Source of the DNA: Dehalococcoidia bacterium
GTDB taxonomy: Bacteria > Chloroflexota > Dehalococcoidia > Lucifugimonadales > UBA2962
Direction: 5' to 3'
Assembly (NCBI GenBank): GCA_034421295.1
Contig: DAOUKM010000003.1
Coordinates: forward strand, 130,709 to 194,708
Length of the DNA: 64,000 nucleotides
The position numbers and the translations under genes were made by a program. The notes under the pieces are model-generated. The model was given only the letters and a program-made list of their open reading frames with translations. It was not told the origin of the DNA and searched no databases. This document shows positions 17,503 through 54,028 of the stretch, in pieces. Position 1 is the stretch's first letter, and each line of letters begins with the position of its first letter.

Positions 17503-19698
17503 CTAGGGAGGGCCTTCTTCGGCTGGCTCAACGCGCAGGTCTGGAAGCCAGCTGAGCGCCGACGGCAGGTACCAGTTTCGCCTGCCCAGCACCTCCATGC
17601 TGGCCGGAACCAGGACCGAGCGCACCAGCGTGGCGTCAAGGAGAATGGCGACGGCGAGCCCGAATCCCACCTGCTGGTTAAGGATGTAGTCGCCTGCGGC
17701 GAATCCCCCGAACACCGCGACCATGATAAGGGCCGCCCCTGTGATGATTCCGGCGGTCGACCGCAGCCCGTAGGCCACGGCACCGGCGTTGTCGCCGGTC
17801 TGGTCGTAGCGCTCGCGGATGCGGCTCAGCAAAAACACGTGATAGTCCATCGATAGCCCGAACAGGACCGTGAACAGGAAGAGCGGTATCCAGGCGTCTA
17901 TGACCTCCGAATGGCTGAAGCCAAACAGGTCCGTGCCCAGTCCCTTCTGGAAGACAAGCACCAGCAGCCCGTACGAGGCGCCGACGGAAAGAAGGTTCAT
18001 GATCACGGCCTTGATCGGGATGACGATCGATCTGAAGACCAGCATCAGGATCAGAAAGCTAAAGCCCAGCACGAACGCAAATACGATCGGCGTGTACCTG
18101 TCGACGATGCCGAACAGGTCCGTCGCCACCGCGCTCACGCCGCCAACGTGTACCTCGGCGGGAACCCCGTCGAATGCTGCGGGAATGTACTGCTCGCGGA
18201 GCGCGGCGATCCTGTCCACGGCCGCCGGGCTCCTGGGCTCTCCGGAGATCTCAACTGTGATTATCGCCAGGTCTTGCTCCGGGTGCTGTTCGTACAGGGC
18301 CGGTATGCGCCGAATCGACTCGTCGGAATCGAGCGATGTCTGAAGGGCCAGTATCGCCTCCTGCACCCGGGGATCTTCGGGGTCCGCGTCGATGACCACG
18401 GTTGTGGGGTTGACGAGACCGAAGGAGAACTCATCCTCGATTGCGAAGAAGGCCTCCCTGGTCTTGGCTGACTCCGGCAGGGTGTCCACCCCGTTCAGGC
18501 CCGTCTGGATGTCGAAGTAGAAGTACGTGGCCAGGACCATGGGGGCGCCTATGGCGACTATGCTGATCAAGGGGAACCTGGTCACCGCGCGCGTGATCCA
18601 CTCCCAGACCCCCTCCTGGCCTTCCTCGAATCCCTGCGACCTGGTCCTGCCTATGAGCGGGATCCGCAGGCGGTTTACGCCAGAGCCGATCAGTGCCAGC
18701 ACCGCAGGAACCAGGGTGAGCGTGGCCGCAAGGGTCACGGCGACCACGAGAATTGCTCCTATGCCGATCGACTGGAAGAACGAGGAGGGAATCAGAAGCA
18801 TCCCGCACAGGGCGATGATCACGGTCACGCCGCTGAACAGCACTGTGCGCCCCGCCGCCGCCCCGGCCCTCTCCACCGCCTCGAGCTTGCTCAGGCCCCT
18901 GGCAAGCTCCTCCCTGAAGCGCGAGATTATAAAGAGCGCATAGTCTATGCCGACGGCGAGACCGATCATGGTGATCATCATCTGGACGAAGAACACCAGC
19001 TCGAATGCCTGGCCTATCGCTGAGGCAAGACCCAGTGCCACGATGATCGCAAGAACGGCAAGGATTATCGGCACCAGGGCGGCTATCAGCGTTCCAAACA
19101 GGACGAGAAGGATCGCCAGCGCGACGACGACCCCGAATCGTTCTCCCTGCTCAAGATCGCTCTGAGCGATCTCGTTGGCCTCTGAGGCGATGCTGGCCGT
19201 CCCTGCAATCAGAACGCGAAAGTCGTCGGACGCGTCCTCCTCCTCGACTATGTGGACAACCTCCTCGACGTACTCGGTGGCCTCCTTGATGCTGCCGGAG
19301 AGTCTCACGGGGATGATGGTGGTCTTGCGATCTGCAGACACCAGAGACGGGTCGGGAAGCCGATAGAAGTTAAACGCCTGGGAGACTTTTTCCTGCCCGA
19401 GAGCGACGATGCGGTCGAACACGCCTTCGACCTTGGTCCGGAACCGTGGATCGTCCACAGTCAGGGAATCGGAGCCTACGACGATTATCTCGATCACCGG
19501 TTCAGTCCGGTCCAGCCGCTCCTCCACCAGGTTGGCGGCCTTCTGTGACTCGGCGCCGCCCGTTAGCTTCAGCTCTGTGGTGGTCGCGCTGTCCAGGAGA
19601 TTGAGGATCAGCGCGATCCCCGCCGCCGCCAGAACGATCCAGACGCCGATCGTCACCAGCGGCCTTTGCCCGCATATCCGAGCGAGGTACTCGGTCAA
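17503..19698 (-). CDS. MMPL-family RND-superfamily exporter
   Basis: 731 aa with two 6-TM bundles, each preceded by a large extracytoplasmic loop. Conserved GIDYALF / GLSMDYHVFLLSRIRE motifs are present. Confidence 0.9.
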   Translation of the reverse strand: MTEYLARICGQRPLVTIGVWIVLAAAGIALILNLLDSATTTELKLTGGAESQKAANLVEERLDRTEPVIEIIVVGSDSLTVDDPRFRTKVEGVFDRIVALGQEKVSQAFNFYRLPDPSLVSADRKTTIIPVRLSGSIKEATEYVEEVVHIVEEEDASDDFRVLIAGTASIASEANEIAQSDLEQGERFGVVVALAILLVLFGTLIAALVPIILAVLAIIVALGLASAIGQAFELVFFVQMMITMIGLAVGIDYALFIISRFREELARGLSKLEAVERAGAAAGRTVLFSGVTVIIALCGMLLIPSSFFQSIGIGAILVVAVTLAATLTLVPAVLALIGSGVNRLRIPLIGRTRSQGFEEGQEGVWEWITRAVTRFPLISIVAIGAPMVLATYFYFDIQTGLNGVDTLPESAKTREAFFAIEDEFSFGLVNPTTVVIDADPEDPRVQEAILALQTSLDSDESIRRIPALYEQHPEQDLAIITVEISGEPRSPAAVDRIAALREQYIPAAFDGVPAEVHVGGVSAVATDLFGIVDRYTPIVFAFVLGFSFLILMLVFRSIVIPIKAVIMNLLSVGASYGLLVLVFQKGLGTDLFGFSHSEVIDAWIPLFLFTVLFGLSMDYHVFLLSRIRERYDQTGDNAGAVAYGLRSTAGIITGAALIMVAVFGGFAAGDYILNQQVGFGLAVAILLDATLVRSVLVPASMEVLGRRNWYLPSALSWLPDLRVEPAEEGPP

Positions 19699-30696: not shown

Positions 30697-31344
30697 ATGC
30701 TGAGATTCGCCGAAGAGATCGTACTGCTTTTGATCGACGACGAGGGCAGGTTTGCCAGCGTGCCCGATTGGTCCGTCAACCATGCTCTGGCCGGTGGCGT
30801 TCTGATGGATCTGGCGCTTGAGAACCGTATCGACACCGATCTGGAGAGTCTGATTCTGGTGGACCCTACGCCCGTCGGAGACAGTCTGCTCGACCGGACA
30901 TTGGCGGAGATTTCCGAAGGCGAAAAGCGCGACGCCCGATTCTGGGTGGAGCAAACGGCGGGACGGGCCGATGAGATCCGCGAGGAGGCACTGTCTCGCC
31001 TGATCTCTCAGGGAATCCTGGAGTGCAGGGACGACCGCTTCCTGTGGGTGTTTCGCTCCAAGCGCTACCCGGCGGTCGACCGCAAGGCAGAGAGGGATGT
31101 CAAGCTCCGGGTCATGGGGGTCCTGTTCAGCGATGAGATCCCTCACCCACGCGACGTGGTGATAATCTGCCTCGCCGACGCGTGCGGCATCTTCGGACGG
31201 CTACTGTCTAAGAGTGAGCTGGCGAAGGCCACTGCCAGGATCGAGCAGGTGCGAAAGCTGGATCTCATTGGGCAGGCCATGTCCCAGGCGATCGAGGATA
31301 TAGAGCTCTCGGTCGCCGCCTCAGTGCATCCGTACATGTATTGA
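30697..31344 (+). CDS. GPP34/GOLPH3-like family protein (stand-alone)
   Basis: MLRFAEEIVLLLIDDEG...RIDTD...EIPHPRDVVIICLADACGIF...KLDLIG is collinear with the N-terminal 225 aa of the two P450 fusions at 47.9-52.7 kb. The track start is GTG 30688. ATG 30697 is preferred because a TAGAGT -10-like box sits 7 nt upstream. Confidence 0.8.
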   Translation: MLRFAEEIVLLLIDDEGRFASVPDWSVNHALAGGVLMDLALENRIDTDLESLILVDPTPVGDSLLDRTLAEISEGEKRDARFWVEQTAGRADEIREEALSRLISQGILECRDDRFLWVFRSKRYPAVDRKAERDVKLRVMGVLFSDEIPHPRDVVIICLADACGIFGRLLSKSELAKATARIEQVRKLDLIGQAMSQAIEDIELSVAASVHPYMY

Positions 31345-31440: not shown

Positions 31441-33951
31441 CTACCTGAGGGACCCGACAGCCTCTTCAACCACAGCGGTGGCGTCCTGATAGTCGCTGCC
31501 GGGCGAAAAGTGCAGAGGCTTCCCGAACTGGACCTCGACGCTACCTCTCCTTAGCAGGGGGAATCGGCTGGGAAAACCCGGCCTGCGGATGTGCAGGCGC
31601 AGGGGCACTACCGGGATGCGTCCCTCCACCGCAACCAGGCCGGTGCCGGTCATGAATGGCTTCATGGGTCCCCCGAAGGTGAGTTCTCCCTCCGGGAATA
31701 TGAGGACCGACCATCCGTTGTCCATGATCCTGCCCATGTTCTCCAGGCTGGGGCGGACGGCGCCGTCCCTTGCCAGGGGAAAGCCGTTCCCCAGAAGGGG
31801 GTTCAATAGCCAGCGGACCGGGTTCCTCCACAGTCTTGCCGCGGCGGCTATCGCCATTCGCCGGCGCCACTTCAGCGGCACGGCCTTGGTGATAAGGAGA
31901 TGATCCATGCCCAGGTGGTGATTGGATGCCAGCAGCACGGGGCCAGTGAGCCCCTCCAGGTTCTCGCTGCCTACGACCCTGAGGCTGTAGGTGAGGTTGA
32001 GCAGTGGGAATACCAGAGCTCTCTGGAGCATGCCGCGGAGCATGCGGCACCACCACCGCATTCCCCAGTCCGGGAAGACGACCATTGGGGGGCTCTTGGA
32101 ACCCTCCTCAACGAGCATCGCCAGACCTTCGACGGTCGTCTCTGGCCCCAGCTGACCCTCGTCTATGTAAACGCCCAGTTCCGCTTCAATCGCCGAGAGA
32201 AGCTCCACCCTGCCCAGAGAGTCCAGGTCGAGGTCGTCTCCGAGCCTCAGGTCTTCGAGTATCTGCCCGGGGTCCATTCTGGCTACCTCGCCCAGGATCT
32301 GAGCAAGTCCCCGCGGGCCGCCTCCCCGCCCCGCGCCGGGCCCGGCGGTCACCTGGGCCGCTGGCTCAGAGCCCTGGAGGACAGCGTCGATAACCAACTG
32401 CTTTTTCACCTTCAGTGTGTGTGTTCGAGGAAAATCCTCGCCCCGCCACATGGTCCAGCCTCTGATCTTCTGGTGTTCGGCCAACTGGCCGTTGGTCCAG
32501 GAGACCACCTGCTGCGCTGCGTCCGCGTCACCCAGGATCAGCGCGGCGTGGACCTCGACGGAAGAGCCCCTGCCCACTCCAACCACGGTGGCGTCATTGA
32601 CCTGGGGGTGCCTGACCAGCACCGCTTCGACATCCTCGGGAAAGACGTTCTGGCCGCTTGGCAGAACGATCATGTCCTTCAGTCGCCCCTGAATATGCAG
32701 GAACCCCTCTTCATCCAGGTACCCCAGGTCGCCCGTCTTGTACCAGTCGCCTTCGAAGGCCGCAGCCGTCTGCTCGGAATCGCGCCAGTAGCCCGGCGTA
32801 ACGTTCTCCCCCCGGACCCAGATCTCGCCCGCGCCGCTGATCTCTACCTCCACGTTCGGCAGCGGGCGACCGGCCGATTCAAGCCGTCTTTCGCCGAGGG
32901 CATGGTTACTGATCACGGGAGAGGCCTCGGTGGCTCCGTAGCCCTGGAGGATCTTTACCCCGATGAGCTCCCACTTCCGTCCAGTGTCGAGGTCCAGTGC
33001 CGCCCCGCCCGACACTATGAAGTCAAGCTCACCTCCAAACTGCCTGTGCACCCGGCGGAACAGGTGCCGTCGCAGCCGGAAGGGCGTCCACGCGGCGATT
33101 GTCAGGAGCAGGTTCCAGAGCGCCCGTTTGCCCTGCCGCTCGACCTCGCGTTCTATGCCGTTCATAAGGAGCTCCAGACCCTGGGGAACGAGGAGCATTA
33201 TCGTGATCCGGCGCTCGCGCATAGTTCTCGCTAGCACCGTGGGCTGGCGGCTGGTCGGGTAGGTGATGCTGGCCCCAGATGCCATGGCCATGAACAGACC
33301 GCCCATCTGCTCGTACATGTGGCTCAGGGGCAGGATGGAAAGCAGTCGGCTGGAGGGCCCGCAGGAGATGTACCGGGAGATGCCCTCGATGTTCGCCTTG
33401 AGGTTCCGGTGGGTGAGCATGACGCCCTTCGGGTCCCCCGTCGTGCCGGACGTGAACATGATCTCGGCAAGGTCATGCGGACCTACGTTGACTTCCGTGG
33501 GACCGGGCAGGCCGGCTATCGCCGCTTCGAGATCCTCGAACGCGATCTCCGGAACGTCCATGTCAAGCTCGCCTTTTGGAGTAAAGCGCGAAGTGAAAGC
33601 CAGCCGGGGCTCGGTCTTCGATAGCACGCGGGATACGTAGTCGGGCTCGCTGCGGACATCGAGTGGAACGACGGCGACACCGGCCCTCAGGCAGCCGATG
33701 AAGATGATCACCCAGTGCGGAGAGTTGGGTCCCCAGAGAATGACCCGGTCCCCCTTGGCCAGGCCCCTGCGCTGGAGCAGGGTGGCGACCTGGCCGGACT
33801 GTGTCCAGACCTGCGAGTAGGTCCAGCGCATGTACCTGAACCCGGGCTTTATGAGTAGGGCATCGAGCGGGCCGAATCTTTCGGTCGCCGTGCGAATGAA
33901 GTCGATGACGGTTTCGCCCGCCGGGTGATCGGATGTTCCGCTAGGGGGCAT
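31441..33951 (-). CDS. tri-domain fatty acyl-AMP/CoA ligase - acyl carrier - lysophospholipid acyltransferase (PlsC-type) fusion
   Basis: 836 aa. The adenylation domain has MFTSGTTGDPKGV, GYGATE and TGDLG. The carrier domain has LGDDLDLDSLGRVEL (Ser attachment site). The acyltransferase has NHHLGMD (HX4D) and FPEGELT. Confidence 0.85.
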   Translation of the reverse strand: MPPSGTSDHPAGETVIDFIRTATERFGPLDALLIKPGFRYMRWTYSQVWTQSGQVATLLQRRGLAKGDRVILWGPNSPHWVIIFIGCLRAGVAVVPLDVRSEPDYVSRVLSKTEPRLAFTSRFTPKGELDMDVPEIAFEDLEAAIAGLPGPTEVNVGPHDLAEIMFTSGTTGDPKGVMLTHRNLKANIEGISRYISCGPSSRLLSILPLSHMYEQMGGLFMAMASGASITYPTSRQPTVLARTMRERRITIMLLVPQGLELLMNGIEREVERQGKRALWNLLLTIAAWTPFRLRRHLFRRVHRQFGGELDFIVSGGAALDLDTGRKWELIGVKILQGYGATEASPVISNHALGERRLESAGRPLPNVEVEISGAGEIWVRGENVTPGYWRDSEQTAAAFEGDWYKTGDLGYLDEEGFLHIQGRLKDMIVLPSGQNVFPEDVEAVLVRHPQVNDATVVGVGRGSSVEVHAALILGDADAAQQVVSWTNGQLAEHQKIRGWTMWRGEDFPRTHTLKVKKQLVIDAVLQGSEPAAQVTAGPGAGRGGGPRGLAQILGEVARMDPGQILEDLRLGDDLDLDSLGRVELLSAIEAELGVYIDEGQLGPETTVEGLAMLVEEGSKSPPMVVFPDWGMRWWCRMLRGMLQRALVFPLLNLTYSLRVVGSENLEGLTGPVLLASNHHLGMDHLLITKAVPLKWRRRMAIAAAARLWRNPVRWLLNPLLGNGFPLARDGAVRPSLENMGRIMDNGWSVLIFPEGELTFGGPMKPFMTGTGLVAVEGRIPVVPLRLHIRRPGFPSRFPLLRRGSVEVQFGKPLHFSPGSDYQDATAVVEEAVGSLR

Positions 33952-44308: not shown

Positions 44309-46792
44309 ATGAACCAGGTGCTCGACAGGCTGAGCTGGCTGGTAACGGCCCGCCCGTACATCACGATAGTAGTTCTCATCTTGGTCACCTTGGTCTTGGC
44401 CGCCGGGGCTTCGCTGAGGCTCCCGCCGACGGAGGGGGCGGACGTAGCCTTCCTCCCGCCAGGGCATCCCGTCGCCGATGCTACCCGCGAGGTCAGCGAG
44501 TTCTTCAGCGACTCAGGCGATGTCAGGGTCGCAACCCTCATCTTCCGAGGCGAGGCGCTGACGCCCAGCGGCCTGTCTCAAATGGACTACCTGATCGATG
44601 CCGTCGCTGGCGACCCTAGCGTGAGCGGGCTTCTGGCTCCTCCCAACCCCATTACCGCGCCCGCGCCCATTATCGCAGCCGCGCTCGAGGTGGACGGCTT
44701 CGAGTCCGTCACCCAGGCGCAGATCGACTCCGTCCGCAGCGTGCCGGAGATCCGGACGGCTCTCTCGGCGATGACAGGGACCGACACGGACGGCACGCCG
44801 GTCGCAATCGCCAACTTCCGCCTGACCAACACGGGCGACGAGAAGATCCGGGACGCCGAGCGGCGGATCGGCGAGCTTGCCGCCGCAGATGAAGGTCCGC
44901 TGCACGTGAGCAGCCTGTCGCCTGTGATCATCGAGGACGAGTACAAGCAGGCCACGGAGTTGGGAATGGCGCCGTTTATAGGGCTGGCCCTGCTGCTGAT
45001 CGTAGTGCTGATCCTTCTCTTCACACGCACCGTCTCCGACATGCTGTTGACGCTGACGGGGCTTATCTTGTCGATCGCCGGGGTTATCGGGGCTGAGGGC
45101 TGGCTTGGGCCGGATGGGCTGGGCCTGATAGGCCCTCCAAGCTCGCTCACGGCAATGGTGCCCGTCATCCTGATCAGCCTGACGGTGGACTATGCCATTC
45201 AGACGGTCTCCCACTACCGCGAGCAGCGTATCGAAGGCGAGCCGGTCGCGGCCGCCACGCGGATTGGACTGCGACACGTCACGATTCCGCTGACGCTGGC
45301 AGCCGTAACCACGATCGTCAGCCTGCTGGCTACCCTCTTCTCGCCGATCGGGGTGATCGGCGACTTCGGCATCGTCGCGGGGCTGGGCGTGGCCATTAGC
45401 CTGGTGGTGATGCTGGCGCTTATCCCCGCCGGCCGGACAATCATCGACCGGCGGCGCGAGGTGCGAGGCACCCTGAAGCCCGCCCGGCCGATCTCGAACG
45501 CACTGCCAGGCATCCCCAAGGCGGCTGAGCTGCTCGGCAAATGGGTTACGCGCAGGCCAGCGCCCCACCTCATCGCAGTGCTCCTGATTACGATAGGCCT
45601 AGGGTATGCCGCCACCGGGCTGGAGTCCGAATTCAGTATCAAGGACCTCCTGCCCCGGGGCGGGGGCGTCCTGGAGGACATGAACACTCTGGAAGCTGCC
45701 GTAGGCGGATCGACGGAGATAGCCAGCCTTCTGATCAAGTCCGAGGCAACTGAGAGCCGCACGCTATTGAATCTCCACGATCTCACCAACGCCTTCGACG
45801 ACGAGCAGAACCGCCCGCGGGGCGCCGCGGGGCCCATCCAGGGATCATACGAAAGGTTCGTGTACGACTGGACCAACGACTCCGGTGAGCCCGGCGACAA
45901 GTACGACCCGGAGTTGGCAGCGCTCTTCCGCGAGGCTTCGCCCGGAGTGGAGCTCAATCCGGCGCTGATGCAGGAGTTCGTCGACAGGCTCTTCGAGAAA
46001 GAGCCGGAGCTGGCGCATTTCATGGTCAACGACCCGGATGGCCCCGATACGATGCTCCTCCAGTTCCCGATCCTCCCGGGCGATCCAGGGGGAACGAGGA
46101 CGCTCAATGACGACATAGACGAGCTGTGGCTCGGCGACGACAGCGCCGTTGCGGCGACTTCCGGCAGCATCGTCGCCGTTGCGGTCACCGACCAGATCAC
46201 CGAGGGACAGACAGAGTCGATCACCACGACCATCGCCGTCGCCCTAGGCATCCTCGCCATCTTCTTCTGGTTGACGCTTCGTCAACCCGCTTTGGCAGTA
46301 ATCGCCGTGGGGCCGATCGTCCTCGTCCTCTTCAGCGTGCTGGGCACGATGGCGCTGCTGAGCATCCCCTACACCCTGATAACCTCGATCATTACGGCCC
46401 TGTCGATCGGTATTGGAGTCGACTACACAATCCACGTGATCCATCGCTACCGAGAGGAATTCAACCGCGTCCGCAACCCGGAGAAAGCGGCGGTCCGCAC
46501 CCTTGCGACCACCGGTTCCGCCCTGTTGGGATCGGCGCTGACCACGGCGTTCGGATTCGGAGTCCTGATCGCATCGCCGCTGCTTGCGTTCCAGCAGTTC
46601 GGCATCACAGCCACCATCACGATCATCTACTCCCTGATAGTCTCGGTCTTTGTGGTGCTGCCCGCGATGGTGGTCTGGGGCGCGTACCAGAACATGCGAA
46701 TGCGCTCGATGGTCGAGCGTATGTGGGAGGATCTGGACGTGGCCATCGAGGACATCGCCCAGCTTCACCAGCAGGGTCGGGGCTCGTCCTAG
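44309..46792 (+). CDS. RND-superfamily exporter of the MMPL/HpnN-like branch
   Basis: 827 aa with a 1+5 TM, large loop, 1+5 TM topology. Conserved TVDYAIQ and GVDYTIHVIHRYREE motifs are present. Its stop lies 12 nt before the methyltransferase start, with GAGAGGGA as the RBS. Confidence 0.9.
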   Translation: MNQVLDRLSWLVTARPYITIVVLILVTLVLAAGASLRLPPTEGADVAFLPPGHPVADATREVSEFFSDSGDVRVATLIFRGEALTPSGLSQMDYLIDAVAGDPSVSGLLAPPNPITAPAPIIAAALEVDGFESVTQAQIDSVRSVPEIRTALSAMTGTDTDGTPVAIANFRLTNTGDEKIRDAERRIGELAAADEGPLHVSSLSPVIIEDEYKQATELGMAPFIGLALLLIVVLILLFTRTVSDMLLTLTGLILSIAGVIGAEGWLGPDGLGLIGPPSSLTAMVPVILISLTVDYAIQTVSHYREQRIEGEPVAAATRIGLRHVTIPLTLAAVTTIVSLLATLFSPIGVIGDFGIVAGLGVAISLVVMLALIPAGRTIIDRRREVRGTLKPARPISNALPGIPKAAELLGKWVTRRPAPHLIAVLLITIGLGYAATGLESEFSIKDLLPRGGGVLEDMNTLEAAVGGSTEIASLLIKSEATESRTLLNLHDLTNAFDDEQNRPRGAAGPIQGSYERFVYDWTNDSGEPGDKYDPELAALFREASPGVELNPALMQEFVDRLFEKEPELAHFMVNDPDGPDTMLLQFPILPGDPGGTRTLNDDIDELWLGDDSAVAATSGSIVAVAVTDQITEGQTESITTTIAVALGILAIFFWLTLRQPALAVIAVGPIVLVLFSVLGTMALLSIPYTLITSIITALSIGIGVDYTIHVIHRYREEFNRVRNPEKAAVRTLATTGSALLGSALTTAFGFGVLIASPLLAFQQFGITATITIIYSLIVSVFVVLPAMVVWGAYQNMRMRSMVERMWEDLDVAIEDIAQLHQQGRGSS

Positions 46793-46804: not shown

Positions 46805-47842
46805 ATGCAGCTTCGTGATCTATCCAACGGGCTGAAGGCCGCATACCGTGGGGCGGACGTCCGCAGTCGCGTGAAGCGCTTCGATGGGTGGATGGACAGG
46901 GCGCACGTGGATGGAGCCGGCACGGCGGACTACGACCACACCCAGACCGTCAAGGAATACTACGACCTATGCAGCGAGTTCATGGTGTTCGGTTGGGGTG
47001 AATCACTCCACTTCGCGCCGCTGTCGCCAAGGGAGAGTCTGGAGGAATCCAAGATCCGGCACCAGCGGCTGATGATCGCCAAGCTGGAGATGCGCGAGGG
47101 CATGACGGTGATCGACGTCGGCTGCGGGATCGGCGGTCCGATGCGCCGGGTCGCCCGCGAAGCCGGTGTCAGCGTGGTCGGGATCAACACCAATGAAATC
47201 CAGCTGGAGAGGGCAAGATCATTAGGCGCTCAGGCGGGGCTCGACCATTCGGTCGACTACTTGGCGTGCAGCTTCATGGACATGGGCGCCATCGCGGACG
47301 ACACGTTCGACCGGGGGTACGCGATCGAATCTACCTGTCATGCGCCGGACAAGGCGGGAGCGTTCGCCGAGATCTACCGCGTGTTGAAACCCGGAGCACT
47401 GTTCTGGGGTCAGGAAATGTGCATGACGGACAAGTTCGACCCCGGCGACAATCGGCACCTGGCCATCAAGAAGGACCTGATGCACGGTATCGCGCTCAAG
47501 GATATCGCGACCACCGGCGAGGTGAACCGCGACCTGGAAGCGGCGGGATTCCAGGTCATCGAGGCGAAGGACCGGGCGGTCGATGAGAACGGTTCCATCA
47601 CACCGTGGTACCAGCCCATGGAGGCCCGGGGCAATACGCTGGGCAACGCCCTGCGCAGGACTCCTCTGGGCCGCAAGGCGATCATCGGGACATCCAGACT
47701 GGCCGAAGCGGTGGGGATTTTCCCGAAAGGATCGGCGGACGTTGTCGGGTTGATGGATCGCACGGCCAAAGCCTACCTCGCGGGCGGCCGGGCAGGTGTT
47801 TTCACGCCCCTGTACTGCTTCCTGGCTCGAAAGCCCCTTTAG
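46805..47842 (+). CDS. sterol 24-C-methyltransferase (SMT/ERG6) family SAM-dependent methyltransferase
   Basis: 345 aa, collinear with ERG6-type SMTs. YYDLCSEFMVFGWGESLHF matches SMT region I (YEYGWGxSFHF). VIDVGCGIGGPMRRVA is the SAM motif. YAIESTCHAP matches the AIEATCHAP motif. The C-terminal Sterol_MT_C-like end GVFTPLYCFLARKP matches FTPMxxFxARKP. Confidence 0.85.
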   Translation: MQLRDLSNGLKAAYRGADVRSRVKRFDGWMDRAHVDGAGTADYDHTQTVKEYYDLCSEFMVFGWGESLHFAPLSPRESLEESKIRHQRLMIAKLEMREGMTVIDVGCGIGGPMRRVAREAGVSVVGINTNEIQLERARSLGAQAGLDHSVDYLACSFMDMGAIADDTFDRGYAIESTCHAPDKAGAFAEIYRVLKPGALFWGQEMCMTDKFDPGDNRHLAIKKDLMHGIALKDIATTGEVNRDLEAAGFQVIEAKDRAVDENGSITPWYQPMEARGNTLGNALRRTPLGRKAIIGTSRLAEAVGIFPKGSADVVGLMDRTAKAYLAGGRAGVFTPLYCFLARKPL

Positions 47843-47885: not shown

Positions 47886-49913
47886 CTAGACTTCTATCTC
47901 GTGCCGCTGCTCTGCGATGCGGAACTTCAGCTTCTTGCTTGGTTTCATCGACGGTATGGGGTTGAACCGGAACTTGAAGTTCGCAGGTGAGACCTCGAGC
48001 GTGAAGTAATGGGCAATCATCAGCACGGTGACGGCAAGGTGCAATTCCACCCACCGAGAGCCGAGACACCTATGCGTGCCCAGCCCGTACGGTGCGTAGC
48101 CGGGGCTGAGATGTTCGTTGCGCGGAGGCAGGTAGCGGTCGATGTCGAACTTGAACGGGTCTGGGAAGACGTCGCTCATGTAATGTGAGGCTGTCGTGGC
48201 GATGTAGAGGCGTGACCCGACCGGCAGCTCATAGTTCTCGACCACACACGAATTCATCACGGTCCGAAGTGACATGGGAATGATCGGGTACATCCGCAGG
48301 CATTCCATAAGGAAGCGGTGCGTGACGTCAATGGCCTCCCGGGTGAAGTCCCCGGCTTTTGGGTCGCCGTTGTCAAAGAGGGCATCTGCTTCACGCTGGA
48401 TCTGGCGGTAGAGCGCAGGCTGCGACGCCATAGCGTACACCGCTAAGCTCAGTGCATCGCCAAGGTACATGCTGGCCAGCAGTGGCGCCGTAAGTGTGAA
48501 CCGCATATTCGATTCCGGGAAAAACTGCGGATCGCTCCCGTGCAGGCTGAGCAGGTCATCCACAAGGTCCCGAGCGGCTCCAGCCCGCTGGGCCGATGTA
48601 TGTTTATCCTGGATCCGACGCAGCACCGTGTCGATGGCTTTCCCGCGACGCCTCATGTTCGGGGTATTCAGCATGAATTTGGGCAAGACCTTCAGTACGT
48701 GAACCGCAAGCGCCCTTTCCTTGTACATGATCAGATCGTCGACGATATCTTGCGAGTTAAGGCTTACAACGAGCGGCGAGAGCTGTGCATTAATCATTCG
48801 CCGGCTCATGCTAGTAGCCGGTAAGATGCCTCCAACCTTCCAATCTGCCATTTGCTTCCGGCCTTGATGAAACAGTTGGTCTATCTGGCCCGCAAGCCTC
48901 TCGCGGGAATAACCCGGCTGCATGGCCTTGCGAAGGCGGAAATGGTCGGCGCCATCGAGGGAAGGTATCAGCCCTGAGGCGCCAAAGGCCTCCTCCATGC
49001 TGGTGAAGTAATCTCTGGCTCTCAGGTGCATGCGTCCGCGCTTGTTCACCCAGTTGTTTGTCTCAGGCCCGGCCAGGAAGACCATGGGCTCTGCGAACGG
49101 TCGGCGGATCTCGAACACCGGGCCATACTCGTGCGCAAGGTCCGCGAATAACGCCGGGATGTTGCCGGTGCGGACGTGCGGATTCAATAGCAGCTTGCGT
49201 AGTGATATTGAGGGAATGTCCTTGGTGAGTGCGGAACGTCGAAGCAGCGGTCCGGCTAGGTTCTGGGAGACCGCATCAGCTATGGACCGGGCGATAAGAT
49301 CCAACTTACAGATGGCCTGGATGCGCTCATCTATCACTTCATCGAGTTGAAACATGAAGCGAAAGACGTCGCAGGTATCGATCAGGGCGATGATGATGAT
49401 GTCTCTCGGATCGGGAATCTCATTATTGAAGATGACTTTGCTGATGCGAGTCCTGACGAAGTGCGCCGCATTGCCGTCCGACGAAGCGCTGGCCACTTCC
49501 GCGCGTAAGGCGGCGCGGGAAAGCGTCCAGAATTCGCCGTCATGGTGTTCCAGGATCTTCAGTTCAACCAAATGATCCAGAGCCATATCAATTATGGACT
49601 CTGCACGTGGGGCGAGCCGTTCGATCCAGTACTGGGCGTTCCGCCGTGCCGATTCCCCCGCGATCTCGTTGAGTATGGGGTCCAGCGTAGGGTCACCTGT
49701 TTCTGTCCTGTCCAAAAGGAACAGGGAATCCATGTCAGTGTCGATGCGTGACATGAGAGAAAGTTCCGCGAGCGCGGCGCCGGCAACGGTGCAGTTCAGA
49801 TCCCAGCCTGGTACTTGGTGGAAGTAACCGCTCTCCTCATTGAGGAGCATCAGTATGAGTTCTTCCGGCAGGCTTAACTGTTTGGCCGCTTCACCGTCCG
49901 TGGTGAGAGTCAT
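47886..49913 (-). CDS. GPP34(GOLPH3-like) - cytochrome P450 fusion protein, paralog A
   Basis: 675 aa. Residues 1 to about 225 are collinear with the stand-alone GPP34 protein (EELILMLLNEE, RIDTD, EIPDPRDIIIIALIDTCDVF, KLDLIA). The C-terminal roughly 450 aa is a P450: ExxR is ECLRMYP, the PERF-like motif is FDIDRYL and the Cys-ligand loop is YGLGTHRCLGSRW. Confidence 0.9.
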   Translation of the reverse strand: MTLTTDGEAAKQLSLPEELILMLLNEESGYFHQVPGWDLNCTVAGAALAELSLMSRIDTDMDSLFLLDRTETGDPTLDPILNEIAGESARRNAQYWIERLAPRAESIIDMALDHLVELKILEHHDGEFWTLSRAALRAEVASASSDGNAAHFVRTRISKVIFNNEIPDPRDIIIIALIDTCDVFRFMFQLDEVIDERIQAICKLDLIARSIADAVSQNLAGPLLRRSALTKDIPSISLRKLLLNPHVRTGNIPALFADLAHEYGPVFEIRRPFAEPMVFLAGPETNNWVNKRGRMHLRARDYFTSMEEAFGASGLIPSLDGADHFRLRKAMQPGYSRERLAGQIDQLFHQGRKQMADWKVGGILPATSMSRRMINAQLSPLVVSLNSQDIVDDLIMYKERALAVHVLKVLPKFMLNTPNMRRRGKAIDTVLRRIQDKHTSAQRAGAARDLVDDLLSLHGSDPQFFPESNMRFTLTAPLLASMYLGDALSLAVYAMASQPALYRQIQREADALFDNGDPKAGDFTREAIDVTHRFLMECLRMYPIIPMSLRTVMNSCVVENYELPVGSRLYIATTASHYMSDVFPDPFKFDIDRYLPPRNEHLSPGYAPYGLGTHRCLGSRWVELHLAVTVLMIAHYFTLEVSPANFKFRFNPIPSMKPSKKLKFRIAEQRHEIEV

Positions 49914-50085
49914 CCGTCTTGCTCCCGTGGACCATGCCGATGTTCTAGGCTGCCCGGTACCGTCCGTATGAGGGACAGTTTATCCTACCGACGAGGTAGC
50001 GATGCAGCCTTTTGGCGGCTCTATAATGCGCAACGCGTCGGGGCTGTACAGGTCGTTCCTGGGCCCTGCACGGGCTACCCTGGCC
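49914..50085 (-). promoter_or_regulatory. conserved 5' region of P450 paralog A
   Basis: About 130 bp directly upstream of the start is alignable almost base-for-base with 52732 to about 52865. It includes GGGAG about 8 nt before ATG and TAGAAC (plus strand gttcta, 49942-49947). Confidence 0.5.
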
Positions 50086-50590
50086 GAGGTGATCGAGACC
50101 CGCACATTTCTGAATCTTGAGGATCTCACAACCGCCTTTGAGGACGAGTCGCCTTGTCCGCCGCAGGATGCAGGACCGATCCAGGCTCCGTGCCACCCGG
50201 CACTGAGCGACCGGGATGAAGACACTGTGGAGTCAGGAGACAGCTACGCCCCCGAGCTTGCGTCTCTCTACTGGGAAGCTTCCGTTGGCCTGGCCCCCGA
50301 CGAGGTTGCATCAAGGGGTGTGTAAAAACGATCAGGCGGCGACCCTCTCTATCTGTTCCTCGATGGGGATTCCCCCGACCGAGAGCTGATGCGACAGGCC
50401 GTCGAAAGGCTTGTCGACAATAACCGCACCTGACGTGCCTTCCATTGAACGATCCGGAAGGCATCGATACGCTGCCACCTCAGTTCCCGGTCTACCTGGG
50501 CGATCCCACGGGAACTGGGATGATCCAAGAGGAATTGGAATCGCTCTGGTCGGGCGACGACAGCGCCATCAAGGCGACTCTGGTGAGGAG
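50086..50590 (+). pseudogene. decayed internal fragment of an RND exporter gene paralogous to 44309-46792
   Basis: EVIETRTFLNLEDLTTAFEDES..AGPIQ...YAPELASLYWEAS aligns to ESRTLLNLHDLTNAFDDEQ..AGPIQ...YDPELAALFREAS of the intact gene. LNDPEGIDTLPPQFPVYLGDPTGT...LESLWSGDDSAIKAT aligns to VNDPDGPDTMLLQFPILPGDPGGT...IDELWLGDDSAVAAT. In-frame stops lie at 50323-50325 and 50431-50433, and the frame changes after the second. The TM domains and both gene ends are missing. Confidence 0.7.
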
Positions 50591-50703
50591 GCCGGCTTGG
50601 CAGCTCGAGTAAACGCCTGCCGCGTTTGGCCCCTCGTCGCCGCTCGTTACCGGCAATACGCTAGCCGGCTGGCTGCGCGGAGAGACGAATGCCCGGCGGA
50701 CGG

Positions 50704-52731
50704 TCAGGCGCGTATCTCATGCCTCTGCTCGGCCACCCTAAGCTTCACCTTCTTGCCCAGAGACAGTGACGGAAGTGGACTGATCTTTGGCCAATCACCC
50801 ACGGGGGAAACCTCAAGCGTGAAGTAGTGAGCGATCATGAGTGCATTGACGGCCAGCTGCAGTTCCATCCAGCGGGAGCCGAGACAGGTATGCGTGCCCA
50901 GGCCGAAAGGGGCGTACCCGGGACTGAGGTGCTCATTGCGTGGAGGCGTATAGCGGTCGATGTCGAATGTGAAGGGGTCGGGGAAGACGCCCTTCATAAA
51001 GTGCGTGGCCGTTGTGGCGATGAATATTCGTGATCCAATCGGGAGTTCATAATCCTCGACAACGCACGTATTCATCACGTTCCGAATAGACATCGGGACG
51101 ATGGGGTACATGCGCAGGGTCTCCATGAGGAAGCGGTGAGTAACGTCTATTGCTGACGGCGTGAAATCCCCGCCCTTCGGATCGCCGTCGCCGAACAGGG
51201 CATCAGCTTCGCTCTGGATCTTGCTGTAGAGCTCAGGTTGGGACGCCATTGCATAGAGCGCGAAGCTGAGTGCATCGCCGAGGTAGACGCTGGCGATCAG
51301 CGCTGCTGCGAGCTGGAAGCGTAGAGTCGTCTCCGGGACGAACTGCGGATCGCTTGCATGCAGGCTGAGCCAGTCGTCCGCAAGGTCCCGGGGAGAACCG
51401 GCCCGCTGGGCGGGCGTGTGGACGCCTTGGACCCGCTTCAGCAACGTGTCCACTGCCTTCGCCCTGTGTCTCATGTCAGGAGTGTTGAGCATGAATTTGG
51501 GCAGGACCTTAATGATGTGAGTCAGGAGCGCCCGTTCTTTGTACTTGGCCAGATCGTCAAAGACATCCTGAGATTCCACGCTGATAAAGAGCGGCGAGAG
51601 TTGCGCGTTGATCAGCAGGCGGCTCATGCCCGTTGCGGGCATGGAGTCGCCGACCTTCCAATCCGCCATGTGCTTTCGGGCATGGCGGTAGAGAATATCC
51701 AGCTGTTCTGCGAGCCTGCCGCGGGAATACGCCGGGGACATGGCCTTGCGAAGCCGGAAATGCTCTGCCCCGTCCATAGAAGGCATCACTCCGGACGCGC
51801 CGTAGACCATCTCGAAGTCGGAGAAATAGTCTTTAGCCCTCAGGTACATGCGTCCGCTTCGATGCACCCAGCGGTTCGTCTCTGTCCCGGCAAGGAAGAT
51901 CATGGGTTTCTGAAGCGGCGGGTGGATCTTGAATACCGGGCCATACTCTTCTGCCAGGTCCGCAAAGAGCGCGGCAATGTTGCCGCTGCGGACGTGCGGA
52001 TTCAGCAGCAGCCTGCGCAGTGAGACTGTGGGTATATCCTTGGTGAGCGCGGAACGCCTAAGCAACGGACCGGCCATGTTCTCGGAGACGGCGTCGGCTA
52101 TGGATCGGGCGATAAGGTCCATCCTGCAGATGGCCTGGATGCGCTCTTCTATCTCGTCATCGAGCTGAAACATAAAACGAAAGACATCGCAGGTATCGAT
52201 CAGGGCGATGATGATGACATCTCTCGGATCGGGAATCTCATTGTTGAATATGACCTTGCTGATGCGAGTCCTGACGAAGTGCGCCGCATTACCCTCTGAC
52301 GACGCGCTGGACATCTCCGCCTGCAGGGCGGCACGGGAAAGCGTCCAGAATTCACCTTCATGGTGCTCCAGGATCTTCAGTTCAACCAGACGGTCCAGAG
52401 CCAGGTCGATTACGGACTCTGCCCGGGGGGCGAGCCGTTCGATCCAGTACTGGGCGTTCCGCTTTGCCGGCTCCCCCGCGATCTCCTTGAGTATGGGGTC
52501 CAGCGCGGGGTCACCCGTCTCGGTCCTGTCCACAAGGAAAAGGGAATCTACGTCAGTGTCGATGCGCGAGATGAGGGAAAGTTCCGCGAGCACAGCGCCG
52601 GCAACGGTGCAGTTCAGGTCCCAGCCGGGTACCTGGTGGAAGTAGCCGCTTTCCTCATTGAGGAGCATCAAGATGAGCTCTTCCGGCAAACTTAGCCGTT
52701 TGGTCTCTACACCGTCTGTAGTGAGAGTCAT
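50704..52731 (-). CDS. GPP34(GOLPH3-like) - cytochrome P450 fusion protein, paralog B
   Basis: Same architecture and length (675 aa) as paralog A when started at MTLTTDGVETKRLSLPEEL (ATG 52731). The track ORF start 52821 adds 30 non-homologous residues. The Cys loop is FGLGTHTCLGSRW and ExxR is ETLRMYP. Confidence 0.9.
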   Translation of the reverse strand: MTLTTDGVETKRLSLPEELILMLLNEESGYFHQVPGWDLNCTVAGAVLAELSLISRIDTDVDSLFLVDRTETGDPALDPILKEIAGEPAKRNAQYWIERLAPRAESVIDLALDRLVELKILEHHEGEFWTLSRAALQAEMSSASSEGNAAHFVRTRISKVIFNNEIPDPRDVIIIALIDTCDVFRFMFQLDDEIEERIQAICRMDLIARSIADAVSENMAGPLLRRSALTKDIPTVSLRRLLLNPHVRSGNIAALFADLAEEYGPVFKIHPPLQKPMIFLAGTETNRWVHRSGRMYLRAKDYFSDFEMVYGASGVMPSMDGAEHFRLRKAMSPAYSRGRLAEQLDILYRHARKHMADWKVGDSMPATGMSRLLINAQLSPLFISVESQDVFDDLAKYKERALLTHIIKVLPKFMLNTPDMRHRAKAVDTLLKRVQGVHTPAQRAGSPRDLADDWLSLHASDPQFVPETTLRFQLAAALIASVYLGDALSFALYAMASQPELYSKIQSEADALFGDGDPKGGDFTPSAIDVTHRFLMETLRMYPIVPMSIRNVMNTCVVEDYELPIGSRIFIATTATHFMKGVFPDPFTFDIDRYTPPRNEHLSPGYAPFGLGTHTCLGSRWMELQLAVNALMIAHYFTLEVSPVGDWPKISPLPSLSLGKKVKLRVAEQRHEIRA

Positions 52732-52935
52732 CCGTCTTGCTCCCCGTGGACCATGCCGATATTCTAGGCCGCTCAGTACCGTCGGTAGGATGGACATTTT
52801 ATCCCACCGGTGAGGCAGCACTGCTGCATCCTGGTGGCCCTATGATGCGGGATGCGTCCGGGAGGCGCGCGTCCGGGGCTGGACGGATCGCTTCTGGGTC
52901 CCGCGGGTCGGGCGCGATTTACCCTGGCCGGATCC
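52732..52935 (-). promoter_or_regulatory. conserved 5' region of P450 paralog B (shared divergent region with the Rieske gene)
   Basis: Homologous to 49914-50085. TAGAAT (plus strand attcta, 52761-52766) lies about 30 nt upstream of the ATG and a GGGGAG RBS is present. Confidence 0.5.
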
Positions 52936-53086
52936 AGGCATACAGATCGAAAACTCATGAGAGGAGCGTTGAGCGATAGCAACTCGATTTAAGGCGCCCG
53001 CGGACGCCCCGCTGGCTTCCCCGTTTCCAGAGGGCTGGTATTTCGTCGCAAGCCGTCGCACCATCTTAAAGGCGAAGCTCATCCAG

Positions 53087-54028
53087 ATGACCTGGATGAG
53101 CGAGAGCATCGTAGTCTGGTGCGACGAGAGCGGGCGGGTCTGCGTATCCGAGGCCTATTGCCCCCACCTCGGCGCCGATCTGGGGCCTGAGGCCGGGGGG
53201 AGAGTATGCGATGGTCGGCTCGTATGTCCCTTCCATGGCTATGAGTTCGATGCAACGGGCCAGTGCGTCGCCACCCCTTTCTCCCCTCCGCCGAAATTTG
53301 CGAGGCTGCGGGTCTTCGAGACGCGAGAGATAGCCGGGATGATCTTCGCGTGGTGGGGAATCCGGGGACGGGCGCCCCAGTGGCACCTGCCCTCAGAATC
53401 GCCTGACCAGACTGGTTGGAGCGATATTGATGTCAGGACCATCCGTTTTCCCGGGCATCCTCAGGAGACCACGGAGAACTCGGTGGACCTGGCGCACCTT
53501 CGGTACGTGCACGGTTACGACGGCGTAAACCGCGTCGGCCCCGTGTCCGTGGACGGTCCCCTTCTGGAAAGCAATTTCGACTTCACGAGAACCCGGACGA
53601 TCGCCGGTATAGCTAGCTTCACGTTCGATGTTTCAGCCAGGACCCGTATCTATGGACTGGGATACTCGTACGTGGAGATCCGCGAGCATTCCATCGGCAT
53701 GGACTTACGCCTGTGGATACTGGCGACTCCTGTCGACGGGAATCTAATAGACCTGTCTCTGGCAGGGCAGGTGCGGGAGATCAGTAACCCCAGGCGATGG
53801 ATATTGGGTCTCGGATTTCTCCCGGTGAGGCTGCGTGCGCCCATAATGAACAAGTTCATGGCCTCCCAGCAAGAAAAGGACGTGCGACAGGACGTGGTCA
53901 TCTGGAGCCGCAAGCAGTATAGGTCCCGCCCCCGCCTGTGCCGCTCCGATGGCGAGCTCATGCCATTTCGAGCCTACTGTGCCCAGTTCTATCCCGACCC
54001 CGGCGATTCTGACATCTCGGCTGTCTAG
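53087..54028 (+). CDS. Rieske [2Fe-2S] non-heme-iron oxygenase, alpha-subunit-like (true start probably upstream)
   Basis: The Rieske motif is CPHLGADL-x16-CPFHGYEF. The mononuclear iron motif is ENSVDLAHLRYVH (E-x3-D-x2-H-x4-H). The frame is open back to 52973 and encodes FPEGWYFVASRRTILKAK, the canonical first strands of the Rieske domain, but no ATG, GTG or TTG is present there. Confidence 0.85.
   Translation: MTWMSESIVVWCDESGRVCVSEAYCPHLGADLGPEAGGRVCDGRLVCPFHGYEFDATGQCVATPFSPPPKFARLRVFETREIAGMIFAWWGIRGRAPQWHLPSESPDQTGWSDIDVRTIRFPGHPQETTENSVDLAHLRYVHGYDGVNRVGPVSVDGPLLESNFDFTRTRTIAGIASFTFDVSARTRIYGLGYSYVEIREHSIGMDLRLWILATPVDGNLIDLSLAGQVREISNPRRWILGLGFLPVRLRAPIMNKFMASQQEKDVRQDVVIWSRKQYRSRPRLCRSDGELMPFRAYCAQFYPDPGDSDISAV

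Follow-up and report, generated by a model that had tools for sequence, protein, structure and literature searches.

A 64,000-nucleotide stretch of Dehalococcoidia DNA (here called the window) carries two paralogous genes on the minus strand, A (positions 47886 to 49913) and B (50704 to 52731), each encoding a 675-amino-acid protein in which an N-terminal GPP34 (GOLPH3-like) domain is fused to a C-terminal cytochrome P450 domain. These fusions are probably sterol-tailoring P450s that bear a membrane or lipid adaptor domain and belong to a horizontally spread cassette. Their genes lie beside those for a sterol C-24 methyltransferase (SMT)-like protein, a KshA-like Rieske oxygenase, and an MMPL/Patched-type transporter, and this association recurs across bacterial phyla, in some of them next to bona fide sterol biosynthesis genes.

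The fusion genes and their sterol-gene neighborhood

Both open reading frames (ORFs) run without an internal stop through two complete domains, as the original prediction had stated. Pfam places GPP34 (PF05719) at amino acids 15 to 217 of both proteins (99.6 bits, E = 3e-28 in A; 104.8 bits, E = 8e-30 in B) and p450 (PF00067) at 247 to 659 (112.8 bits, E = 2e-32 in A; 130.8 bits, E = 8e-38 in B), against gathering cutoffs of 29.1 and 22.8 bits; the GPP34 match covers positions 1 to 200 of the 201-position profile. In B, these domains correspond to 52081 to 52689 and 50755 to 51993, with a linker between them. A and B are 76% identical and align without a single gap. The best 120 of 2,100 homologs (E ≤ 1e-5) are all two-domain proteins, 73 to 94% identical, with B's closest relatives at 94%. 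The fusion is encoded in at least 596 stretches of GTDB species-representative genomes, and representatives of 50%-identity clusters supplied dozens more full-length fusion clusters (26 to 56% identity). Because the same architecture recurs across homologs and genomes, the fusion is not an artifact of assembly or of a missed stop codon. The nearest relatives are from Dehalococcoidia metagenome-assembled genomes (MAGs), many of them sponge derived (SB066x, APA_bin, RHO1_bin). A GTG at 52821 would lengthen B to 705 amino acids; close homologs are 672 to 680 amino acids long and begin MTLTT, so we take the ATG at 52731 as the start of B.

In the window, the genes are ordered MMPL transporter (+), SMT (+), fusion A (−), an MMPL remnant, fusion B (−), and Rieske oxygenase (+). 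The transporter (44309 to 46792) is of the MMPL/Patched RND type and has a sterol-sensing match (Pfam MMPL, 4e-39; Sterol-sensing, 1e-9; Patched, 2e-8) as well as HAE3/HpnN-like matches in NCBIfam. It ends 12 bp upstream of the SMT-like gene (46805 to 47842) on the same strand; the latter converges on paralog A across a 43-bp gap. The SMT-like protein matches Sterol_MT_C (E = 1e-14; 54.6 bits against a cutoff of 21.7) along with the CMAS and Methyltransf models, and contains a Region-I-like FGWGESLHF sequence; compared with PDB sequences, it retrieved generic methyltransferases only. The Rieske gene (52976 to 54028), divergent from paralog B, encodes Rieske and KshA_C domains, and its best PDB match is KshA (1.5e-21). 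We rejected its assignment as SdmA, for which it scored 26 bits against an NCBIfam cutoff of 600. If begun at its first ATG (53087), the Rieske protein would have 313 amino acids and a truncated Rieske domain. Ahead of this ATG, the frame stays open back to an ATA at 52976, which follows a GAGGAG at 52961 to 52966, and from there it aligns with the MxTR... N termini of orthologs of 345 to 358 amino acids; it appears from these alignments that the ATG has mutated to ATA or that ATA serves as the start. A 93%-related locus (L004) has the same short Rieske ORF. A search for promoters and terminators between 44000 and 54300 gave nothing above shuffled expectation.

We sampled 80 GTDB species-representative loci bearing at least eight taxon labels (Dehalococcoidia/Chloroflexota, Nitrospirales, Latescibacterota, Binatia, Thermodesulfobacteriota, Opitutales, Rhodothermaceae, and Palauibacter) and counted partner genes within 10 kb of the fusion. 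A cassette-type SMT (≥60% identity) was present at 57 loci; it was directly adjacent to the fusion at 55 and convergent and immediately downstream at 51. The KshA-like Rieske gene occurred at 67 of the 80 and the MMPL/Patched transporter at 54. All three accompanied the fusion at 44 loci, and at least one of them did so at 71. Other recurrent neighbors encode an FAD amine-oxidase-like protein (37 to 41 loci), an LppX/LprAFG lipid-carrier lipoprotein (16), an MFS transporter (15), and an ERG4/ERG24 sterol reductase (12 to 13). The amine-oxidase-like protein, which carries an NAD_binding_8 domain, is about 450 amino acids long and is 75 to 95% identical among loci (for example, L030, 7389 to 8744); it is absent from the window. 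Elsewhere, a more distant fusion (P0157) lies near an RND pump gene and a KshA-like Rieske gene.

The fusion is also physically linked to bona fide sterol genes (SMT, sdmA/sdmB, and ERG4/24). At six of the 80 loci (L014, L018, L076, L038, L062, and L063, from Nitrospirales, Thermodesulfobacteriota, Opitutales, and Binatia; about 12 to 22 kb in each locus), sdmA lies within 10 kb of the fusion, at four of them together with sdmB; these loci have ERG4/24 and a second, ERG6-type SMT and lack the MMPL gene. The cassette thus seems, from gene content, to come in two flavors: in one it accompanies de novo synthesis genes and in the other, found in Dehalococcoidia, an MMPL/Patched transporter. At locus L087, an independent fusion pair (36 to 43% identity) lies inside a full sterol cluster composed of SMT, a hydrolase, 3beta-HSD/SdmB (303 bits), Rieske/SdmA (413 bits), ERG4_24, and another P450. 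The Nitrospirales layout runs fusion, SMT, Rieske, one unidentified gene, amine oxidase, second SMT, sdmB, sdmA, and ERG24, and matches the gene numbering of a Nitrospira MAG in Supplementary Data 1 of Brown et al. (2023, PMC10070321), which has two SMTs with three unannotated genes between them. According to Kelly et al. (2022, PMC9531527), Dehalococcoidia that live in sponges, as well as nine other phyla, carry steroid gene clusters spread by horizontal transfer.

We propose that the cassette comprises the MMPL/Patched-like transporter, the SMT, the GPP34-P450 fusion, and the KshA-like Rieske enzyme, often with the FAD amine-oxidase-like enzyme and sometimes with ERG4/24. The P450 would oxidize or desaturate a sterol for alkylation by the adjacent SMT, or the SMT might act before it, and the Rieske enzyme may modify the sterol ring. 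Enzymes of the KshA type perform 9-alpha-hydroxylation, and those of the Neverland type perform 7-desaturation. The transporter could supply or export the sterol, which would be host derived where a transporter moves it and self-made at loci with adjacent de novo genes.

A second MMPL transporter gene in the window (17503 to 19698, −) adjoins a gene for an MPAB_Lcp_cat (latex-clearing-protein/MpaB-type) oxygenase (16330 to 17502, −), which from domain content may be another lipid or isoprenoid oxygenase-transporter pair.

Fold and I-helix of the P450 domain

The P450 domains retain the hallmarks of heme-thiolate enzymes. The heme loop reads PFGLGTHTCLG in B (50878 to 50910, −) and PYGLGTHRCLG in A (48060 to 48092, −), that is, P-[FY]-G-L-G-T-H-x-C616-L-G. 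Across 91 divergent sequences, C616 is invariant, and conservation is at least 90% at P608, G610, G612, H614, E537, R540, F589, D590, and R593; the two ExxR residues of the K-helix, E537 and R540, are invariant in 48 close homologs, and the PERF-like motif is FDIDRY. At the N-terminal side, a conserved IP...G.P.LGN proline hinge follows directly upon the GPP34 domain; in microsomal P450s, a membrane anchor occupies the position just before this hinge. No signal peptide or transmembrane segment was predicted in the fusion.

AlphaFold2 (AF2) gave a weak model when supplied with the 48 close homologs (predicted local distance difference test [pLDDT] score, 65.8; Foldseek matches with root mean square deviations of 8 to 10 Å), and we replaced it with one of paralog B based on the 91-sequence alignment (pLDDT, 90.1; predicted template modeling score, 0.86), in which the I-helix is continuous from 467 to 497. 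Foldseek matched this model to CYP184A1 (template modeling [TM] score, 0.83), the CYP51s of Methylococcus and human (0.81 to 0.82), and CYP46A1 (0.80), and also to P450 BM3, CYP3A4, and CYP97; scores to CYP184A1, CYP51, and BM3 span 0.79 to 0.83. As modeled, the fold appears to be that of a lipid-, sterol-, or terpenoid-type P450 of no specific family. Assignment as a CYP51 sterol 14-alpha-demethylase was rejected: identity is 18 to 22% (E of about 1e-21), no signature motifs are present, the I-helix differs (the AGQHTS signature of CYP51 is absent), and in both sequence and structure comparisons, CYP51 matched no better than CYP102, CYP184, CYP3A, or CYP97. No NCBIfam equivalog matched the fusion.

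The I-helix departs from the canonical (A/G)Gx(D/E)T(T/S) motif. The original prediction had placed LGDALS at the position of this motif, about 131 residues before the heme Cys, and had read the acid as replaced by Ala and the Thr by Leu. LGDALS is indeed present (amino acids 484 to 489), with G485 standing 131 residues ahead of Cys616, but it is not the motif equivalent, the register being about four residues off. We aligned both fusions with 88 divergent relatives from the cluster-representative search, most of which have canonical AG[LI]DT[AV]; a typical relative's motif, FIAGLDTVASTCAFMLYALFKHP, aligns with LIASV-YLGDALSFALYAMASQP of the fusions. The AGxDT counterpart is then A480-S481-V482-(one-residue gap)-Y483, one residue shorter than the motif, within ASVYLGD of B (amino acids 480 to 486; 51274 to 51294, −) and ASMYLGD of A (48456 to 48476, −).

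The gap can be placed in two ways. A HMMER alignment to a CYP102-like P450 (7f3w) agrees in register and puts it after D486, with Y483 at the Glu and L484 at the Thr, a placement that relatives with AGH-YTGS (P0161 and P0199) favor. Placement before Y483 is favored by the distance from Y483 to P499, which is 16 residues, the same as the Thr-to-Pro spacing of P450 BM3 and P450cam. Recovering the LGDALS register, by contrast, requires a five-residue gap in the alignment to CYP51 (7jj1). The acid and Thr positions are accordingly either Y483 and L484 or the deletion and Y483, not A487 and L488, and the motif Gly corresponds to Ser481 in every register. The broader claim, that the I-helix lacks the acid-alcohol pair, therefore stands: none occurs in any register, and no normal D/E-T pair turned up elsewhere in the I-helix in either the 88-relative alignment or HMMER comparisons with PDB P450s.

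This state is conserved in 48 homologs, where S481, Y483, G485, and D486 never vary and 47 have L484. Among 44 fusion clusters that are full length with the heme loop intact, 33 retain a Thr preceded by an acid or His (DT in 23, ET in 5, and HT in 5) and seven have the deletion (five with Tyr and two with Asn, the residue that some sister clades show in the Tyr483-aligned column). DT is kept by 21 of 25 stand-alone relatives. Because most fusion clusters and stand-alone relatives keep the canonical residues, the pair-less I-helix is by this comparison a derived state restricted to a subclade. We know of no characterized P450 that combines a one-residue deletion with an invariant Tyr in this arrangement (A-S-x-Y-L-G-D). 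At L087, it is the SMT-adjacent fusion copy that has the deletion and Tyr (ASL-YMGN). Tandem pairs of very divergent fusions (L038, 7773 to 9797; L087, 8001 to 12143), 29 to 43% identical to each other or to those of the window, differ in I-helix state (ALDP, AST-N, and ASL-Y), which indicates, as judged from these sequences, an old paralogy within the fusion family.

If the fusions activate O2, proton delivery might be provided by Tyr483 or by a substrate hydroxyl; in P450eryF, a substrate hydroxyl takes the role of the missing Thr. Alternatively, the enzyme may perform a desaturation or rearrangement.

The GPP34 domain and the history of the paralogs

The PI4P (phosphatidylinositol 4-phosphate) pocket of GOLPH3 is formed by W81, R90, R171, and R174 (Wood et al. 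2009, PMC2806290). Aligned with human GOLPH3 (hhalign probability, 76%), the fusion domain keeps W81 as the invariant W37 and has A44 in place of R90, both by phmmer and hhalign. R171 corresponds to E105 and R174 to I108 by hhalign only, beside a 10-residue gap, and these two assignments are less certain. The GOLPH3 query sequence used matches the PDB alignment over the part that the two share. Thus, the Trp is kept, and the three basic residues are apparently replaced. The domain is also acidic, with an isoelectric point (pI) of 4.5 and a net charge of −19 (21 Lys plus Arg against 40 Asp plus Glu); the pI of the P450 domain is 9 to 9.5, and that of the GOLPH3 core is about 7.8. Being acidic and apparently devoid of the basic pocket residues, the domain appears, from its sequence, to be a poor candidate for binding an anionic phosphoinositide. 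We conjecture that, instead of reading PI4P, it serves as an adaptor, either for peripheral contact with membranes or lipids or for docking a partner.

The window also holds a stand-alone GPP34 gene (GPP34_S; 30697 to 31344, +; 215 amino acids; PF05719 E = 3e-42, 145 bits), whose cataloged start is the ATG at 30697 and whose cluster mates are named Dehalococcoidia GPP34 family phosphoprotein. Its collinearity with the fusion domain, noted earlier from the sequence, was borne out by alignments with fusion GPP34 domains of other genomes (33 to 43% identity). It converges on a gene (31441 to 33951, −) for an 836-amino-acid fusion of AMP-binding, PP-binding, and PlsC-type acyltransferase domains that resembles an acyl-ACP-phospholipid O-acyltransferase/ligase; a STAS/SpoIIE/HATPase partner-switching module flanks the stand-alone gene on the opposite side. 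This neighborhood recurs in five related loci (L089 to L093), which are too similar to one another to prove functional linkage.

The original prediction held that the GPP34 halves of A and B differ at about 29 of the first 225 positions and that the P450 halves are more diverged, and took this to mean that the adaptor is under the stronger constraint. The counts agree: we found 28 differences in amino acids 1 to 225 and 70% identity in 226 to 675. The interpretation, which we tried as a case of stronger purifying selection on GPP34, fails, since synonymous divergence (dS) is itself 2.4-fold lower in the GPP34 half (0.49 against 1.13) and omega is similar (0.125 against 0.168); across 48 orthologs, the GPP34 domain is slightly less conserved than the P450 domain (mean pairwise identity, 74.8 and 78.3%). 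The A/B divergence switches at codons 200 to 250, and the 130 bp upstream of A and B (49914 to 50043 and 52732 to 52862) are 80% identical. Among 187 family members, the GPP34 half of A falls closest to the B lineage (rank 3), and its P450 half stands apart: none of its relatives exceeds 75% identity, and B ranks 139 of 187 for it. The lower dS, the upstream identity, the split rankings of A's halves, and the conservation among orthologs together indicate that gene conversion or recombination occurred at the domain junction or linker and that paralog A is a mosaic.

The 790-bp spacer between A and B contains degraded MMPL gene fragments (50002 to 50292 and 50424 to 50579, +), which by blastx match amino acids 447 to 547 and 566 to 617 of the intact copy (44309 to 46792) at 42 to 48% identity. 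That decayed MMPL fragments separate the fusion paralogs suggests that two cassettes lie next to each other and that one of them lost its SMT and the greater part of its MMPL gene; gene conversion may later have homogenized the fusion genes over their 5′ halves.

Alternative explanations and relation to known systems

Several observations weigh against assigning the fusions to sterol tailoring. We infer the sterol substrate, whether host derived or self-made, from gene neighborhood alone. Partner genes are convergent or divergent to the fusion, so most are not cotranscribed with it. Five of the 80 loci, and one 2.8-kb contig without flanks, have no partner genes, and two divergent fusions are found in nonsterol contexts, P0169 with a sulfotransferase neighbor and P0161 with nothing relevant nearby. 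No redox partner is encoded within 10 kb: a search for conserved small ORFs, ferredoxins, or reductases in this range found none at the 80 loci. The absence of a nearby redox partner is usual for bacterial P450s, yet it would also fit partner-independent chemistry. The Rieske partner resembles KshA, a catabolic family in actinobacteria. As to the adaptor, its role is a conjecture, and the alignment at R171 and R174 is uncertain, adjoining the 10-residue gap at an hhalign probability of 76%. The P0169 locus (L084, 8001 to 12080; canonical AGIDT, 36 to 37% identity) has Sulfotransfer_1 and then Acyl_transf_3 genes on the same strand, which hints at lipid hydroxylation followed by sulfation or acylation in that subfamily.

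An alternative interpretation of the missing acid-alcohol pair is that the P450 no longer activates O2 and, free of partners, isomerizes or dehydrates lipid (hydro)peroxides like CYP74, CYP8A, and CYP5A or acts as a peroxygenase like CYP152. The conserved absence of the pair in every register and the lack of a ferredoxin or reductase gene at the 80 loci are consistent with this, as is the Asn of some sister clades, which recalls the catalytic Asn of CYP74 and PGIS. We nevertheless think it unlikely: the heme loop is canonical (P-[FY]-G-x-G-x-H-x-C-x-G) and has none of the insertions typical of CYP74 heme loops, bacterial P450s usually rely on redox partners encoded elsewhere, and Tyr483 or a substrate hydroxyl could stand in for the Thr as in P450eryF. 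CYP7 and CYP8B sterol P450s likewise lack the pair and are still monooxygenases. If the substrate is a sterol, it could instead be broken down, with Cyp125-like side-chain oxidation by the fusion, opening of ring B by the Rieske enzyme, and import of host sterol as a carbon source. KshA proteins are the Rieske partner's best solved relatives, a transporter is present, and sponge tissue is rich in sterols, but the tightest-linked neighbor (adjacent at 55 of 80 loci) is an anabolic, side-chain-alkylating SMT, the biosynthetic ERG4/24, sdmA, and sdmB genes co-occur, and the recurrent neighbor clusters include no KstD, KshB, FadD3/HsaA-type, or beta-oxidation genes; catabolism is thus hard to credit. 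A nonsterol substrate, such as a hopanoid or other triterpenoid, an unsaturated fatty acid, or a carotenoid, would make the "SMT" a CMAS-type lipid methyltransferase. It does match CMAS/cyclopropane synthase models, the transporter also resembles HpnN hopanoid transporters, CYP184A1, the top structural neighbor, binds a fatty acid, and FAD amine-oxidase genes are classic neighbors of CFA-synthase-like genes. With Sterol_MT_C well over threshold, the Region-I-like sequence in place, and the cassette contiguous with sdmA, sdmB, ERG24, and a second ERG6-type SMT in several phyla, we find such a substrate highly improbable.

Quite another role follows from the proposal of Ferreira et al. (2025, Microbiome 13:4, PMC11706023) that GPP34 proteins are secreted as effectors, bind PI4P, and keep the phagosome from maturing; the fusions would then act on host PI4P at the phagosome, with the P450 as an accessory. 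In that study, the GPP34 family was strongly enriched in sponge symbionts of many phyla and absent from free-living relatives. The GPP34 fold and the W81-equivalent Trp are conserved in the fusions, and the absence of a signal peptide is no obstacle to type III, IV, or VI effectors, which need none. Against PI4P binding stand the pI of 4.5 and the apparent replacement of the three basic contact residues by A44, E105, and I108. Furthermore, the fused heme enzyme requires cytoplasmic cofactors and electron donors, the cassette includes an inner-membrane RND transporter and a sterol methyltransferase, and secretion or binding data are absent from PMC11706023. We regard an effector role as quite unlikely for the long form.

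Sterol tailoring thus remains our preferred explanation. Within it, we consider as a long shot that fusions with the deletion and Tyr are dedicated SMT partners acting in side-chain unsaturation, or partner-free rearrangers of sterol peroxides, and that GPP34 serves as a hitherto unrecognized bacterial sterol- or membrane-handling module. If this is true, side-chain unsaturation would let the SMT add further methyls, leading to 24-isopropyl or 26-methyl sponge sterols, the "sponge biomarker" sterols would have bacterial symbionts among their active producers, and a biochemical function not seen before would be added to the GPP34 fold. More generally, the synteny joins two literatures, that on GPP34 symbiosis factors and that on bacterial SMTs complicating the 24-isopropylcholestane "oldest animal" biomarker. 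The most abundant GPP34 fusion adjoins the symbiont SMT in the majority of the genomes that have it and, in several phyla, de novo sterol genes as well. It gives the orphan family a testable substrate class and weakens the PI4P-effector model for its long form. At least three uncharacterized enzymes (the P450, the KshA-like Rieske enzyme, and the FAD oxidase), together with a Patched-like transporter, may shape sponge sterol profiles, and the I-helix variant offers a clean target for mechanistic work on P450s.

The architecture itself, which the original prediction took to be undescribed, has been published: GPP34_L, a single polypeptide with N-terminal GPP34 and C-terminal P450, comprises 656 proteins found only in sponge-symbiont genomes of many phyla (Ferreira et al. 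2025, PMC11706023). The fusions of the window share its PF05719-plus-PF00067 architecture, and its size of about 675 amino acids and almost certainly belong to this set; judging by their nearest relatives, they may also come from a sponge symbiont. The GPP34_L paper does not contain the word "sterol," analyzed flanks for GPP34_S alone, and examined neither P450 motifs nor PI4P-pocket residues; in the literature searched, we found no report of a sterol-cassette context, I-helix state, or basic-pocket loss for GPP34_L, and no link between GPP34 and sterols in symbionts. What appears to be new is the tight link to the SMT cassette, the nature of the I-helix change and its restriction to a subclade, a PI4P pocket that seems to have been lost, and the mosaic origin of A. 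One isolate with the fusion and the cassette, Plut_88904 (L018, JAAXIB010000027.1), looks coral derived (Porites lutea) by name alone, and, again from names, may be what Brown et al. (2023) list as the "Nitrospira sp., coral reef" MAG; in that case, sponge symbionts would not be the sole carriers of the long form.

The clusters of Brown et al. (2023) and Kelly et al. (2022) come from the same organisms and share SMT, sdmA/sdmB, ERG24, CYP51, OSC, and horizontal transfer across phyla with the loci studied here. By position, the cassette SMT corresponds to the second SMT of the Brown et al. clusters, about 35% identical to ERG6. Those studies sought homologs of yeast ERG and Methylococcus sdm genes only; P450, GPP34, and Rieske are unmentioned in the accessible main text and supplements of Brown et al. 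(2023, PMC10070321), and relative to the clusters as given there, the fusion, the KshA-like Rieske enzyme, the amine oxidase, and the MMPL transporter are additional, undescribed members.

At the level of single domains, the missing (D/E)-(T/S) pair at the O2-binding kink is a trait shared with P450eryF, CYP74, CYP8A1/CYP5A1, CYP152, and CYP7/CYP8B. The GPP34 domain resembles eukaryotic GOLPH3/Vps74 in its Pfam fold, in the Trp (W81 to W37), and in a beta-hairpin after the long helix (121 to 131, with modeled strands at 121 to 124 and 128 to 131); it differs in having Ala, Glu, and Ile at R90, R171, and R174, a pI of 4.5 rather than about 7.8, and a 10-residue segment missing before the pocket helix. 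As a whole, the fusion recalls the CYP51-ferredoxin protein of Methylococcus capsulatus and P450 BM3 (TM scores, 0.79 to 0.82), which likewise join a sterol-pathway or lipid P450 to a helper domain, but here the fused domain is N-terminal, carries no cofactor, and is not a redox partner.

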